Assembly (NCBI GenBank): GCA_964582375.1
Contig: CAZORL010000006.1
Location: 611-64,610 of the forward strand
Reading direction: 5' to 3'
Source: an uncultured Lachnospiraceae bacterium
Lineage (GTDB): Bacteria; Bacillota; Clostridia; Oscillospirales; CAG-272
DNA: 64,000 nucleotides
The notes under the pieces: model-generated
The model's database searches: none
What the model was told of the DNA's origin: nothing
The model's input: the letters and a program-made list of their open reading frames with translations, nothing else
Shown here: positions 58,542-64,000 of the stretch, in pieces
How positions within the stretch are numbered: the first letter of the stretch is position 1
Layout of the letters: each line of letters begins with the position of its first letter
Made by a program: the position numbers and the translations under genes

Positions 58542-59129
58542 ATGTTACCGCAAGAAGTTCATGAACAACAAAAAGTAAAGTTAATGTATGGGGCGGTCGA
58601 CGCAGTGGTGCGTGATGGCCTCTCAAATGCTACCGCGCGGTCTATCGGCAATATAAGCGGAATAAATGAAGTCTACATATATCGTTACTTCGAGAATATG
58701 GACGACCTGTTCGCCAAGACCTTTGATCTGGCAGATGAATATTTCCTGAGTTTCATTCTCGATAATTTTCCCGTCATCAGCTATACCGATATCGATTATC
58801 AGGCGCGTTGCCGCATCCTGTTCAATAAATGCTGGCATTTGATGCTCGATAACCCCAATTGGCTGATCTTTTATGTCAGATATTACTATTCAACACTCTT
58901 TCAAAAGAATTCATACGATGACCATATGGCGCGCTATAGCGTCCTGAACGATCTGGTTCGCCCTGCCTGCTATCCCGGTACCGACCCTGCCGTTGTTCTG
59001 CATCATGTCCTCGATACCACCCTCGGACAGGCAAGAAAACAGATCCTTCACCCCACCGATCCCGCTGTCGCTGAAGAGAATTCATTTTGGCTTGTCTACA
59101 GCGTCCTTAAATGCGGCAAGGGAATATGA
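58542..59129 (+). CDS. TetR/AcrR-family transcriptional regulator
   Basis: N-terminal HTH pattern L.NATARSIGNISGINEVYIYRYFENMDDLF. About 195 aa, all-helical layout. Confidence 0.7.
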   Translation: MLPQEVHEQQKVKLMYGAVDAVVRDGLSNATARSIGNISGINEVYIYRYFENMDDLFAKTFDLADEYFLSFILDNFPVISYTDIDYQARCRILFNKCWHLMLDNPNWLIFYVRYYYSTLFQKNSYDDHMARYSVLNDLVRPACYPGTDPAVVLHHVLDTTLGQARKQILHPTDPAVAEENSFWLVYSVLKCGKGI

Positions 59130-59176
59130 TCTGCCTTCATGCTGTTGCATATTAAATAATAAAGGAAATCATCTAC

Positions 59177-59845
59177 ATGAATAAGACTCTTAAGATCGTT
59201 TGGAATGTAATTTCCACAATAATCGTCGTGCTCGTCGTGCTCCTCGCTGTCGCACTCGTCGGCGTCCGACTTTTCGGCGTGCAGACCTACGCCGTCGTCT
59301 CCGGCTCGATGGAACCTATGTACTCGGTAGGCTCACTCCTCTATGTAAAAAGTGTTGATCCCGATGACCTCAAGGTCGACGATCCCATAACATTCATGCT
59401 CGATGAAGATACCGTTGCAACACACCGTATCATCGAAATACTCCCCGACGAGGAGAACGATGTTCTTCGCTTCCGTACTAAGGGCGACGCCAATAAAGAT
59501 GCCGACGGTACCCCTGTTCATCAAAATAACATCATCGGTAAGCCCATGTTCGCCGTTCCTTACCTCGGCTACTTCGCAAGCTTTATCCAGAACCCTCCCG
59601 GACTCTACCTCGCCATCTGCGCGGCTGCAGTCCTCATAATACTCGTCTTTATCCCCGATCTTCTCAAAGACGATAAAAATAAAAAAGATAAAAAAGATAA
59701 AAAAGAAAAAGCCGACACCCCCGCCGCTCCCGTCGAAGAGACCGAGCAGACGGATAGCTCCGATAACGATAAAATGAGCAATTCGGAGATGCCCTCAGAC
59801 GCAGATGGCGTCGTAACCCCGCCCGAGAACGGGGATAATTCCTAA
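59177..59845 (+). CDS. sipW: SipW-type (S26B, ER/archaeal-type) signal peptidase I with K/D-rich and acidic C-terminal tail
   Basis: N-terminal TM helix. Catalytic-Ser box VVSGSMEPMY. His box VATHRII. TKGDAN. Second TM helix LYLAICAAAVLIILVFI. Then KDDKNKKDKKDKKEKADTPAAPVEETEQTDSSDND... Confidence 0.85.
   Translation: MNKTLKIVWNVISTIIVVLVVLLAVALVGVRLFGVQTYAVVSGSMEPMYSVGSLLYVKSVDPDDLKVDDPITFMLDEDTVATHRIIEILPDEENDVLRFRTKGDANKDADGTPVHQNNIIGKPMFAVPYLGYFASFIQNPPGLYLAICAAAVLIILVFIPDLLKDDKNKKDKKDKKEKADTPAAPVEETEQTDSSDNDKMSNSEMPSDADGVVTPPENGDNS
59669..59712 (+). repeat. Purine-rich gataaaaaa-type tandem repeats encoding the (K/D)n tail
   Basis: gacgataaaaataaaaaagataaaaaagataaaaaagaaaaa. Confidence 0.8.
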
Positions 59846-59895
59846 GGGGTATCGCCGCAAGGCTCCCATATATATTATTTAAGGAGGTTTTCATA

Positions 59896-60534
59896 ATGAA
59901 AACAAGAAACAAAGCGTTGCTTATGGTTTTGTGTGCGGTACTGCTCGTGGCAGGCTCTGTTCTCGGAACACTTGCCTACCTCACATCGACCGACTCTGTC
60001 ACAAACACATTCACCGTCGGTAATGTTCAGATCACGCTCGACGAGGCAAAAGTCGGTGCTGACGGCAAGGCTCTGACCGGCGATTCTGCCGCTCGTGTCA
60101 AGGCAAACAACTACAAACTCATGCCCGGTCATACTTATGACAAAGACCCTACAGTCACCGTTAAGGCAGGCTCTGAGTCGTCATACATTAAGCTGGTCGT
60201 TGTTGTCACCAAATCGCAAGAGCTTGACGCTATCGGCGTTGATCTTCTGGCAACCTTTAAGGGCTATGACAGTGCTAACTGGCTCTATAAAGGCAACACC
60301 GAAGACACGACCGCCAATACTCGCACCTATGAGTTCTGGTACAAAGAGACCGTTTCGGCACCTAATACTGATGTAAAACTCGACGCACTTTTTGATCAGA
60401 TCACCATTCCCGGAACCATCACCAATGAGCAGATTGCTACTGTCAACGAGATGACCATCACCATCACTGCTCACGCTATCCAGGCTGACGGATTTGCAAA
60501 TGCAAACGCAGCATGGGCGGCATATAATAATTGA
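59896..60534 (+). CDS. SipW-dependent signal peptide protein, paralogue 1 (BsaA/TasA-like matrix or fibre subunit, short type)
   Basis: RBS aaggagg. N-terminus MKTRNKALLMVLCAVLLVAGSVLGTLAYLTSTDSVTNTFTVGNVQITLDE. Core KDPTVTVKAGSESSYIKLVV. C-terminus ITITAHAIQADGFANANAAWAAY. Confidence 0.75.
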   Translation: MKTRNKALLMVLCAVLLVAGSVLGTLAYLTSTDSVTNTFTVGNVQITLDEAKVGADGKALTGDSAARVKANNYKLMPGHTYDKDPTVTVKAGSESSYIKLVVVVTKSQELDAIGVDLLATFKGYDSANWLYKGNTEDTTANTRTYEFWYKETVSAPNTDVKLDALFDQITIPGTITNEQIATVNEMTITITAHAIQADGFANANAAWAAYNN

Positions 60535-62009: not shown

Positions 62010-62087
62010 TCCCCCACCCAATATTATTGGTTTTTATTAATTAACATAAAAACAAAAAAACAAAATTGACAAAGGAGCGCACACATC

Positions 62088-62981
62088 ATGAAAAGAAAAC
62101 TTATCGCAATTATCCTTATTGCTTGTATGGCACTCGTTGCTGTAACAGGCGCAACCCTCGCTTACTTCACTGACAATGACGCAGTCAAGAACGAATTTGC
62201 CGTTGGCAAGGTTGACATCGACCTCTGGGAGATCGTTGGCTATGAAGATGACGAAGCAGTAACCGTCGGCAAAGACACTGACACAACTAACCAGCACACA
62301 TATTCTAACCTCTTCCCGACCGACGAGATCACAAAAGAGGTTTATGTTACCAACAATGACACGGTCAACTCTGTTTACGTTCGTGTTACCGTCGTTATGA
62401 ATAAACTTCAAACTATCGGTGTATCAGCTATAGATCAAGTTTACGAAGCTAAAGGTTGGACTGATGAACAGATCCAGGCTAAATATGATGAAGTCTTCGT
62501 TGGCTGGGGCATCAATTATGCTAAGCGTGTGATCGGTCAGACACGTATGTGGATGACTGACCGTACTGGTAATGGCAGCCCTGTCCTCTTTAACATCGAC
62601 ACCATCGCACGTAACACCGTCGACTACGTCAGAGTCGACAGCAATAACAAGTTCATGACAGATGCTGAGAAGGCTAAGTTTGCAAGATCTAATGATGGCA
62701 TTCTTAACTCGTCTCAAGGCGATCCCGACAGCTATTACAATAACGCTGTTGGTGTAGATGAGCGTGCATACATCTTCTATCTTGAGATCCCTGCAGGTGA
62801 AACGTACAAACTCTTTGATGGTCTCAAAGTTCCCGCTGACTTCACCCAAGAGCAGGCAAAGATGTTCGATGGCCTTAAGATCGACGTTTACGCCGATGCT
62901 ATCCAGACCACCGGCTTTGCTACTCCCGAGGCTGCATTCGAAGCACTCAACGAGCAGTACCCCATCGGTCACTGGAACTAA
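62088..62981 (+). CDS. SipW-dependent signal peptide protein, paralogue 4 (long type)
   Basis: N-terminus ...ALVAVTGATLAYFTDNDAVKNEFAVGKVDIDLWE. Core KEVYVTNNDTVNSVYVRVTVV. C-terminus IDVYADAIQTTGFATPEAAFEAL. Confidence 0.75.
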   Translation: MKRKLIAIILIACMALVAVTGATLAYFTDNDAVKNEFAVGKVDIDLWEIVGYEDDEAVTVGKDTDTTNQHTYSNLFPTDEITKEVYVTNNDTVNSVYVRVTVVMNKLQTIGVSAIDQVYEAKGWTDEQIQAKYDEVFVGWGINYAKRVIGQTRMWMTDRTGNGSPVLFNIDTIARNTVDYVRVDSNNKFMTDAEKAKFARSNDGILNSSQGDPDSYYNNAVGVDERAYIFYLEIPAGETYKLFDGLKVPADFTQEQAKMFDGLKIDVYADAIQTTGFATPEAAFEALNEQYPIGHWN

Positions 62982-63171
62982 ACCTGATCGACCTGATCAA
63001 CAATAATTTCATCTCGCTTTGATGCGTTCGGCGAGGGGCGCATCAAAAGCGGATGTATATGGTCTGCGGATGCAGACCATATACGAGCACACGAAAATTT
63101 CGTTCGCGTGCCGGTATATAGTCTGCATCCATACAAGCAAATAAAAAAGCTAAGGAACGGAGTTCTCTGAC

Positions 63172-63756
63172 ATGAAGAAAAGAATATTCACAATTGCATT
63201 GTTGGCCATATGCGCATCTTTAGCGGCATATGGTACTTTGGCGTATTTTACATATGATGAGACCGCCGTGAATGTCATAATCGCCGGCAGTATCGAGATA
63301 GATCTTCGCGAGTTTTCAAGGCAACCGGACGGCTCACTTGCTACTTTCGAGAATATTGACGACGCCATGCCTGCCACCGATTATTCAAAGATAGTCGATG
63401 TCAAGAATGTCGGCACGGGTACTGCGTGGATCAAAGTCACCGTCGAAAAGAAGCTCACCCTCGCCGAAGGCGTTGAGGGCGAGATCGACCTGTCTCTGCT
63501 CGGGCTTGATATCAATACCCAATATTGGCAGGAGCGTGACGGCTGTTATTACTACATAAAACCGCTCCAACCCGACGAAAAGACCGAACCGCTTTTCACG
63601 ACCGTCTCTTTTTCGTCCGATATGAGCAATATCTATCAGCACTCGAGTGCTGAGATCACGGTTACCGCATATGCTGTTCAGACTGCCAATAACGGCAAGA
63701 CCGTTTTTGATGCCGCAGGATGGACCAAACAGGATCAAGGAGGAAATCTTGAATGA
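63172..63756 (+). CDS. SipW-dependent signal peptide protein, paralogue 5 (camelysin/TasA-like)
   Basis: N-terminus ...ICASLAAYGTLAYFTYDETAVNVIIAGSIEIDLRE. Core KIVDVKNVGTGTAWIKVTVEK. C-terminus ITVTAYAVQTANNGKTVFDAAGW. Confidence 0.75.
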   Translation: MKKRIFTIALLAICASLAAYGTLAYFTYDETAVNVIIAGSIEIDLREFSRQPDGSLATFENIDDAMPATDYSKIVDVKNVGTGTAWIKVTVEKKLTLAEGVEGEIDLSLLGLDINTQYWQERDGCYYYIKPLQPDEKTEPLFTTVSFSSDMSNIYQHSSAEITVTAYAVQTANNGKTVFDAAGWTKQDQGGNLE

Positions 63757-64000
63757 AACAGACTAAGTTGAAGACGTTCGGTAAACTTCACCGCGCACTT
63801 GCCCTCCTGCTTGTCATTTCGACATTCCTGCCGATGATTCCGTCGGGGATCATCCCTTCATTTGCTGTAACAGGTAACGGCGGTGTGAATAACACTATAG
63901 AACACCCTGAAGACTATATCGGTTCGACCGCCGAGTTTGCGGCAGACAGTATCAAATTCTTCGCCGACGGTCATCAAGGCTCTGCAGAGGAAGGAACCGT
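63753..64000 (+). CDS. Secreted protein of unknown function, 3' end outside the window (not in the ORF track because it has no stop)
   Basis: ATG 63753 overlaps the paralogue-5 stop (ATGA), with aaggagg 9 nt upstream. The frame is open to nt 64000: MKQTKLKTFGKLHRALALLLVISTFLPMIPSGIIPSFAVTGNGGVNNTIEHPEDY... This is a classical signal peptide, not the SipW type. Confidence 0.6.
   Translation, partial: MKQTKLKTFGKLHRALALLLVISTFLPMIPSGIIPSFAVTGNGGVNNTIEHPEDYIGSTAEFAADSIKFFADGHQGSAEEGT

Follow-up and report, generated by a model that had tools for sequence, protein, structure and literature searches.

Work on SipW-dependent fibres of the TasA and BsaA type has dealt with three or four model species having one or two subunits apiece, and a locus with five putative subunit genes behind a single sipW gene raises the question of what such an operon builds. 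The locus discussed here occupies the last part of a 64,000-nt stretch of contig CAZORL010000006.1 (hereafter the window), and we read it, with a probability of about 0.72, as the part nearest the promoter of an operon for a Bsa-like, SipW-dependent surface fibre (pilus) in an uncultured, Ruminococcus-like member of the Clostridia. Polymerisation of its five paralogous proteins, P1 to P5, is most likely, judging from their sequences. A preliminary description of the locus, made from the letters alone, had listed a TetR-family regulator, a SipW-type peptidase, five paralogues and a coupled secreted protein on one strand, and all of these reading frames were found in place on the + strand:

58542..59129, + strand: TetR-family regulator (195 aa), first gene of the operon
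59177..59845, + strand: SipW-type (ER/archaeal-type) signal peptidase I (222 aa)
59896..60534, + strand: putative fibre subunit paralogue P1 (212 aa), with donor segment DSVTNTFTVG, E50 and K83
60591..61175, + strand: putative fibre subunit paralogue P2 (194 aa), 38% identical to P1, with the N-E-K triad
61200..62009, + strand: putative fibre subunit paralogue P3 (269 aa), with the N-E-K triad
62088..62981, + strand: putative fibre subunit paralogue P4 (297 aa, the longest of the five), with the N-E-K triad
63172..63756, + strand: putative fibre subunit paralogue P5 (194 aa), a separate orthologous class
63753..64000, + strand: 5' end (82 codons) of the gene for a giant secreted adhesin, its reading frame cut by the end of the window

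The intergenic gaps from tetR through P5 measure 47, 50, 56, 24, 78 and 190 nt, and the ATG of the giant gene at 63753 overlaps the TGA stop of P5 (ATGA). The peptidase scored 107.5 bits against TIGR02228 (cutoff 51.85) and carries the catalytic boxes SGSMEP at residue 42, THRII at 82 and GDAN at 103, which confirms the SipW type that had been assigned to it from the first two boxes. Its score against NF046067, the equivalog model for Bacillus SipW, was 115 bits and hence below the cutoff of 190, indicating a SipW-type peptidase but not an orthologue of the Bacillus enzyme. After the second transmembrane (TM) segment it continues into a low-complexity tail of ~60 residues rich in K, D and E (59650-59845, residues ~160-222); this tail is shorter in relatives, whose SipW proteins measure 179-220 aa.

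P2 to P5 are 28-39% identical to P1 and are true paralogues. All five share a Lys-rich n-region, a hydrophobic core, and the motifs G(A/T)LAY(F/L)T, V-x-N-x-F and I-x-L-x-E at the N-terminus, followed in the core by a (L/M)PG...K(D)P-V-V strand and a C-terminal A-x-A-x-Q...GF strand; A27, T30, N37, L48, E50, P77, K83, A192, A194 and Q196 are among the invariant columns. A SipW-cognate signal had been claimed for each of them: the columns of the signal align in all five, and P1, P3 and P4 pass TIGR04088 (SipW-dependent-type signal peptide; 31.6, 36.4 and 37.9 bits, cutoff 19), with P2 and P5 (15.0 and 14.8 bits) remaining ~4 bits under the cutoff. The same model is matched by 79 of 85 diverse relatives. 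When compared with the TasA, BsaA and camelysin families, as the preliminary description had proposed, the paralogues showed the expected homology in their N-terminal part, and P4 passed Peptidase_M73 (PF12389; 31.1 versus a gathering score of 22.5 bits), the only one to do so; full-length membership was not reached at curated cutoffs. Matches to Peptidase_M73 cover profile positions 2-77 of 196 and thus the N-terminal part only, the scores against TIGR04090 (BsaA family, cutoff 60 bits) were 32.1 bits for P5 (E = 9e-8), 24.1 for P4 and 19.8 for P3, and the TasA equivalog NF046066 gave 17.4 bits against a cutoff of 450. Alignment of the family profile to TasA by hhalign (78% probability, E = 1.7e-5) spans the N-terminal 87 columns and TasA residues 2-72, and places the predicted signal cleavage of P1 at A27|Y28, the mature TasA chain starting at A28. 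On these grounds P1 to P5 appear to be homologous to the BsaA family but to lie outside the family as curated. An AlphaFold2 (AF2) model of P1 (mean confidence, pLDDT, 87.1) shows a confident beta-sandwich, with residues 24-45 free of secondary structure, as expected of a donor strand.

The family to which they belong is large. A profile built from the five paralogues retrieved 13,259 clusters (50% identity) at E <= 1e-3 and 7,742 at E <= 1e-10. A word-indexed search gave at least 8,000 candidates, among which the few named matches are called 'SipW-dependent-type signal peptide-containing protein' and stem from Clostridiales and Candidatus Limivicinus metagenome-assembled genomes (MAGs); the closest genome among the matches listed is an uncultured Ruminococcus sp. 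MAG (L011 below), with a P5 that is 77% identical. The subunit family is therefore known at the level of a signal-peptide annotation, as its NCBI names show, and is mostly metagenomic; in the literature searched we found no experimental study of the branch to which the window belongs.

The strongest pointer to a fibre is a triad of residues. N37, E50 and K83 are invariant in P1 to P5; N37 and E50 recur in 37 of 37 paralogues of related loci, and K83 wherever its position was aligned. Among 155 diverse representatives (mutually at most ~50% identical; the inspection covered the 150 best of the 13,259 clusters) N and E are present in 155 and K in 154. The Asn lies in V35-x-N37-x-F39 of P1, just past the predicted cleavage site, with the variant A-x-N-V-I in the P5 class, and the spacing of V-x-N-x-F is the same as that of V33, N35 and F37 in BsaA of Clostridium perfringens. 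BsaA forms heat-stable oligomers for which mutagenesis found N35, E56 and K74 each to be needed, as fits an intermolecular isopeptide bond, and in AlphaFold models its residues 28-38 enter the subunit next to it, the core of which takes up V33 and F37 (Kivimaki et al., 2024/25 preprint, PMC11580942). We infer from motif, order and invariance that N37/E50/K83 are equivalent to BsaA N35/E56/K74. TasA is without the full triad (PMC11580942), and in our hhalign columns N37 corresponds to A37 of TasA, E50 to E50 and K83 to K68, so that of the three residues only the Asn is missing from TasA. Proteins with the triad numbered 'over 100' in the preprint (PMC11580942); their number is likely to be well above this.

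What follows the giant gene lies beyond the window, and for this part we turned to relatives. Nine related loci were compared (L007, L009, L011, L013, L014, L015, the partial L016, L017 and L019, of which L011 and L017 are one locus in two assemblies), and they share the gene order SipW, three to eight paralogues, P5-like gene, giant gene, short paralogue, LPXTG protein. The search for a common gene order in related genomes that had been advised was thus rewarded in nine loci, the TetR gene being confined to the closer ones. Before the giant gene stand three paralogues in L007, L009 and L015, four in L013 and L014, five in the window and L019, and eight in L011 and L017. The orthologous classes (P1-like, P2-like, P3/P4-like, P5-like, post-giant) stand in the same order from species to species, with a P1 orthologue as the first subunit gene in every relative; compared with the window, L011 holds extra copies (three P1-like, two P3-like). 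The P5-like gene is always single and directly precedes the giant gene (L007, L009, L011, L013, L014, L015, L019). Giant proteins of relatives measure 967-1593 aa, and the short paralogue behind them (187-227 aa) has a long basic N-terminus; that of L011 gave the best BsaA-family score (46.5 bits against TIGR04090).

The operon is closed by an LPXTG homologue in 8/8 relatives that extend so far. This anchor protein (216-423 aa) has an ordinary signal peptide, a C-terminal LPPTG, LIQTG, PPETG or LSQTG motif, a TM segment and a basic tail, and it is the only one with a sorting signal, P1 to P5 and the giants of relatives having none. In 4/6 loci that extend far enough a sortase gene (PF04203, 50-57 bits) follows and overlaps the anchor gene; L011 and L019, the nearest relatives, have the LPXTG protein without an adjacent sortase. 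A profile of six LPXTG proteins aligned with the subunit profile at 94% probability (hhalign, E = 1.4e-7) over the stretch that begins at the (L/M)PG loop and ends with the last strand, and two LPXTG proteins match the five-paralogue hidden Markov model (HMM) directly. A single LPXTG protein gave a probability of only 7.5% against the family profile, the 94% being reached with the six-sequence profile alone, and BLASTP against TasA was not significant. LPXTG proteins have neither a SipW-type signal nor V-x-N-x-F, and carry E, Q, D or G at the position of K83. BsaB of C. perfringens, which has an LPXTG motif in most strains, is without the triad and does not oligomerise (PMC11580942). Under the base-growth model of that preprint, the donor-less LPXTG homologue may be both the terminator and the anchor subunit.

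A mechanism can be proposed from these features. After Sec export, the uncleaved signal peptide would keep each subunit tethered, and the subunit added just before would insert its free N-terminal strand into the beta-sandwich of the new one (donor-strand exchange). An isopeptide bond, formed with the Glu as catalyst, would lock the Asn of the inserted strand to the Lys of the subunit that receives it, as for N35/E56/K74 of BsaA; SipW would then free the new N-terminus for the next round, the fibre growing at its base. P1 to P4 would form the shaft, mixed or as alternatives, and P5, always adjoining the giant gene, would be the distal adaptor to which the giant adhesin is joined. The remaining steps are taken from relatives: a sixth, short paralogue would come next in the operon, and after it a donor-less LPXTG homologue with an ordinary signal peptide, a sortase would fix this anchor protein and hence the fibre to the cell wall, TetR would repress the operon until some signal arrives, and a hairpin before P5 would determine the proportion between shaft and tip-module transcripts. 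From the SipW-cognate signals, the homology of the N-terminal third to BsaA and TasA, the gene order of nine loci, the dedicated TetR, and the anchor and sortase of relatives, the earlier proposal of a multi-subunit extracellular fibre locus is supported.

Several observations weigh against the anchored, covalently locked fibre. It is known here from genes and monomer models alone, and P1 to P5 all score under the curated BsaA (60 bits) and TasA cutoffs. A sequence search of the PDB with the five-paralogue profile returned nothing at E <= 10, and Foldseek found no match of the P1 model in the PDB at E <= 1e-3: its top matches were cohesins and other beta-sandwiches, the TasA-like archaeal pilin 7ueg (7ueg_A) ranked 8th with E = 0.04, and TasA was outside the top 50. 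The spacing from N to E is 13 residues here versus 21 in BsaA, and the correspondence of the two triads is one of motif, order and invariance. No anchor, sixth paralogue or sortase was seen in the window or on other contigs of the same species, all of which end inside the giant gene. Furthermore, as the LPXTG homologue has no lock Lys, the link at the base would be non-covalent or of another kind.

How the fibre is held at the cell is also the point on which the best surviving alternative turns. The locus may instead make released biofilm-matrix fibres, like TasA of Bacillus subtilis or BsaA of C. perfringens strain 13, with the giant, like BsaC, secreted independently of them as an adhesin or a component of the matrix. 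This would agree with the window, in which no further paralogue, sortase or LPXTG substrate was found along its 64 kb, with the missing sortase neighbour of the LPXTG gene in L011 and L019, and with C. perfringens HN13, where oligomers of BsaA are located at the membrane and not at the peptidoglycan and BsaC in the secretome (PMC11580942). We consider it unlikely, as a donor-less LPXTG homologue at the end of the operon in all eight relatives of sufficient length, overlapped by the sortase gene in four, is hard to explain without an anchored fibre. Less likely again are five alternative homopolymers, antigenic or functional variants with one fibre each, their copy number set by tandem duplication under pressure from host or phage. 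The varying number of paralogues before the giant gene (3 to 8) and the three P1-like and two P3-like copies of L011 would suit this explanation, against which stand the constant order of orthologous classes across species, the P5-like gene, which without exception occurs once and adjoins the giant gene, the one promoter and the short gaps shared by all genes, and the co-assembly of TasA and CalY into heterofilaments in Bacillus cereus (PMC13082335). That the paralogues do not polymerise at all, being literal M73 proteases or monomeric surface proteins with a common export signal, would be in line with the restriction of Peptidase_M73 and TIGR04088 matches to the signal and N-terminal region and with the lack of a significant structural match to TasA, but is highly improbable given that CalY was likely misidentified as a peptidase according to Kivimaki et al. 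(PMC11580942), that conservation is highest in the strand after the signal and in the beta-core (N, E, K, A-x-Q) and not at a metalloprotease-like site, and that the start of the mature chain is conserved although the monomer model leaves it without structure.

Returning to the anchored fibre, we asked what its giant protein may contribute. In the species of the window it measures at least 703 aa and contains a Listeria-Bacteroides repeat (from same-species contigs); in the nearest relative it has 1590 aa. Exact copies of P5 were found on 18 same-species contigs, and all 18 end inside the giant gene at or before ~codon 700. Repeats rich in Cys and His (C-x-x-C ... H-T-H-T/H-T-H-G ... C-Y) occur in giants of L005 (3692-5800, residues ~590-700), L001, L007 and L011, and the same-species contigs stop at or before these repeats, a likely cause of the assembly breaks; by their sequence, the repeats could be a metal-binding or disulfide-rich module. 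The giants have an ordinary signal peptide, no sorting signal, and a CnaB-like DUF5979/DUF7601 domain followed by a tail of 15-30 residues. Near-identical loci can hold different giants: L007 (12232-16428) encodes one of 1398 aa with Flg_new, versus VWA-type proteins in L015 (12236-15139, 967 aa) and L009 (12258-15404, 1048 aa). These three loci agree in their flanking genes and in their subunits, and their giants share the N-terminal signal peptide, the C-terminal domain and the tail. The differing passenger domains in near-identical surroundings suggest an exchange of adhesin cassettes, of a VWA type and a Listeria-Bacteroides-repeat type.

The tail itself is conserved. In six giants it contains an invariant W-L, an invariant Asn and an aromatic residue two positions further; the pattern WL-x(2-14)-Φ-x-N-x-[FWY] was present in 107 of 120 homologous C-terminal fragments and ends within ~20 residues of the C-terminus, mostly 1-12. 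An alignment of 60 sequences of the region has W188, L189 and N197 invariant, and in an AF2 model of one giant fragment the fold ends at residue 183, with the tail unstructured (pLDDT ~50). The tail may be a C-terminal donor strand that enters the groove of the first-made, distal subunit, probably of the P5 class, and is locked there by an Asn-Lys isopeptide bond, an idea that we put forward tentatively and at odds well short of even. As a lookalike of the whole donor strand the tail failed: a position-specific scoring matrix (PSSM) of positions 33-39 ranked it from 1 to 393 among ~960-1590 sequence segments in seven giants. With a PSSM of the 5-residue core the ranks were 1, 2, 2, 8, 16, 20 and 232, and the resemblance to the donor strand is confined to this Φ-x-N-x-aromatic core. 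As the tail had been located by the very same motif, the ranks give no independent support to the donor-strand idea. For BsaC, the preprint gives the role as unknown (PMC11580942). One further protein, P0277 (196 aa), joins a SipW-like N-terminus (PF10502) to the DUF5979/DUF7601 domain and tail of a giant, and is probably an assembly chimera or an operon-spanning deletion.

The regulator at the head of the locus scored 20.9 bits against TetR_N (gathering score 24). Its homologues form 38 clusters (37-88% identity), of which 35 carry PF00440 in the precomputed annotation, including those 50-63% identical to the protein of the window, and membership in the TetR family is therefore safe by homology. 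In 4/4 contexts examined, this subfamily stands directly upstream of SipW/TasA-like loci. The TetR of L011 and L017 is 57% identical to that of the window, the TetR of L019, with a five-paralogue architecture like the window, 52%, and the TetR of L018 54%. The last belongs to another arrangement, in which (483-6474) TetR, a second TetR, an LPXTG-like protein, a 180-aa TasA-like protein, a SipW-like peptidase and a 697-aa protein follow each other; the 697-aa protein starts with a SipW-type signal (GTTFAWFTDSVSTGINK), and large proteins can hence carry a SipW-cognate N-terminus. In the more distant relatives L007, L013 and L014 the TetR gene is absent, and its occurrence in closer relatives only points to a lineage-specific, dedicated regulator.

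Upstream of tetR, the following features delimit the locus:

58137..58167, + strand: intrinsic terminator of the comEC-like gene (perfect 14-bp stem, then a T-run), 5' boundary of the locus
58259..58282, + strand: homopolymeric T24 run, upstream of the promoter, read from the sequence
58317..58345, + strand: sigma-70-type promoter TTGACA-17-TATAAT with extended TG (12/12 consensus positions)

As no convincing terminator was found within the locus, and a single strong promoter precedes tetR, the tetR-headed locus reads as one operon. A palindrome, ACAAAC-N6-GTTTGT, sits inside the promoter at 58317..58345. As a TetR operator it was not borne out, being found only in the species of the window and not in L011, L018 or L019, and its role as an operator is a conjecture; no conserved operator was found among these three TetR-headed loci and the window. 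A motif A-C-(C/G)-G-T-C-G-A-A-A-(A)-T, read by eye upstream of the promoter region in the window (~58222-58234), L011 (~143-155) and L019 (~168-181), is a possible candidate site for the regulator. A riboswitch (e.g. for c-di-GMP) was not detected, with no Rfam match better than E = 0.1 in the 196-nt leader and the whole locus. Upstream of three TetR-headed loci there are homopolymer runs, T24 in the window, G12 in L011 (304-315, inside the 20-nt promoter spacer) and G13 in L019 (56-68). These hint at phase variation by strand slippage or at a weak point of assembly, the latter considered because the same-species contigs (Logan) start at the T24 run.

A second candidate control element lies in the 190-nt gap before P5, which has a minimum-free-energy (MFE) z-score of -6.3:

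63068..63130, + strand: RNA hairpin of 23 bp, upstream of P5

Of its 23 pairs, 14 show compensatory changes, and 92.9% of cells are paired, values that none of 500 shuffles reached and for which slid controls gave only 25-45% pairing. The hairpin recurs in L007 (11494-11559), L009 (11520-11585), L011 (7656-7720), L013 (6049-6108), L014 (12087-12149) and L015 (11498-11563), and a covariance model detected it once in each locus, in seven species or strains and immediately upstream of the P5-like gene, with no second copy elsewhere in the window. There is no U-tract behind it and it has no match in Rfam. It may serve in processing, stabilisation or attenuation of the transcript, at the divide between the shaft genes and the putative tip and anchor module.

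In the window the operon is preceded by ordinary housekeeping genes, with no hint of a mobile element around the locus:

53859..55460: ABC-F ATPase gene
55426..55917: 2-thiouracil desulfurase family gene
55944..58118: ComEC gene (PF03772)

In L007, L009 and L015, genes for cohesin and dockerin proteins precede the operon on the opposite strand (0.4-4.5 kb), pointing to a host among the cellulosome-type Clostridia, and DHHW/ALGX-like and MBOAT genes (an O-acyltransferase pair) follow it at 17.3-20.6 kb.

Among known systems the C. perfringens bsa operon is the closest analogue. It consists of sipW, bsaA, bsaB (LPXTG in most strains) and the VWA protein gene bsaC with an adjacent sortase, BsaC being secreted as a monomer, and operons that combine several BsaA/TasA paralogues, LPXTG proteins and sortases have been described before, with heteropolymers suggested (Kivimaki et al., 2024/25 preprint, PMC11580942). 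The statement of the preliminary description that composition and function are not predictable from known systems was consequently too strong. As in bsa, a SipW-type peptidase stands ahead of TasA-like subunits whose signals are of the SipW type, an N-E-K triad is combined with a putative V-x-N-x-F donor strand, a large secreted protein stands behind (VWA-type in L009 and L015, like BsaC), and in relatives a donor-less and triad-less LPXTG homologue corresponds to bsaB, with a sortase gene nearby. In contrast to bsa, there are five triad-bearing subunits (plus one inferred) instead of one, all below the BsaA family cutoff (best 32.1 versus 60 bits); the large protein is 2-2.5x bigger, with MucBP and Listeria-Bacteroides-repeat passenger domains in the lineage of the window; a TetR gene heads the operon, whereas the preliminary description had named SinR or two-component systems as the regulators of characterised loci; and the giant gene precedes the anchor gene. 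Here, unlike in bsa, nothing points to a dependence on type IV pili.

The Bacillus loci sipW-tasA-tapA and sipW-tasA-calY (with CapP) share SipW-dependent export and form donor-strand-exchange fibres (8AUR) with the accessory or anchor homologue TapA, but have one or two subunits and neither a giant adhesin nor an LPXTG/sortase module. The alignment that covers TasA residues 2-72, and in which E50 and K68 are kept, relates the family to TasA itself, which has Ala at the position of the lock Asn and hence would form no covalent lock. Sortase-assembled pili of Gram-positive bacteria likewise combine a tip adhesin, often with VWA, a covalent shaft and, at the base, a subunit that sortase attaches to the wall via LPXTG, and the CnaB-like domain (DUF5979/DUF7601) at the end of the giant is a further likeness. 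Unlike theirs, the shaft subunits here have no LPXTG and no pilin motif, polymerisation would be autocatalytic (an Asn-Lys lock after strand insertion) and not sortase-catalysed, and the giant adhesin has no sorting signal, which the basal protein alone carries. Threads of Sulfolobus acidocaldarius (PMC9715654) reportedly contain isopeptide bonds, according to the titles of studies on them. Together with the bundling pili of Pyrobaculum calidifontis, whose AbpA is TasA-like (7UEG, PMC9245690), they resemble the proposed fibre in donor-strand complementation, but these filaments are archaeal and built from a single subunit, and the weak Foldseek match to 7ueg_A is the sole structural link.

The kind of system is thus already known from Bsa and TasA fibres, from precedents for a covalent lock (BsaA, archaeal threads) and from the heterofilaments of B. 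cereus. What differs are the five to nine lock-type subunits, the exchangeable giant with its tail, the dedicated TetR and the hairpin; the near-universal triad of the subfamily, the conserved tail and the conserved hairpin are not described in the literature searched. The locus of the window belongs to a very large, almost wholly uncharacterised and mostly metagenomic branch (13,259 clusters), the operons of which have grown pilus-like, combining several shaft subunits with a giant adhesin that can be swapped and a base anchored by sortase. If the tail acts as suggested, the links between tip and shaft and within the shaft would form without sortase or chaperone on a sortase-anchored, donor-less base, which would give BsaC-type proteins a role in a system that is widespread in gut Clostridia and equipped with interchangeable adhesin cassettes. 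If the proposed mechanism is true, 'exchange and lock' would be a major way in which Clostridia, gut species included, make covalent adhesive fibres, and its self-ligating protein modules may be of use in protein engineering.

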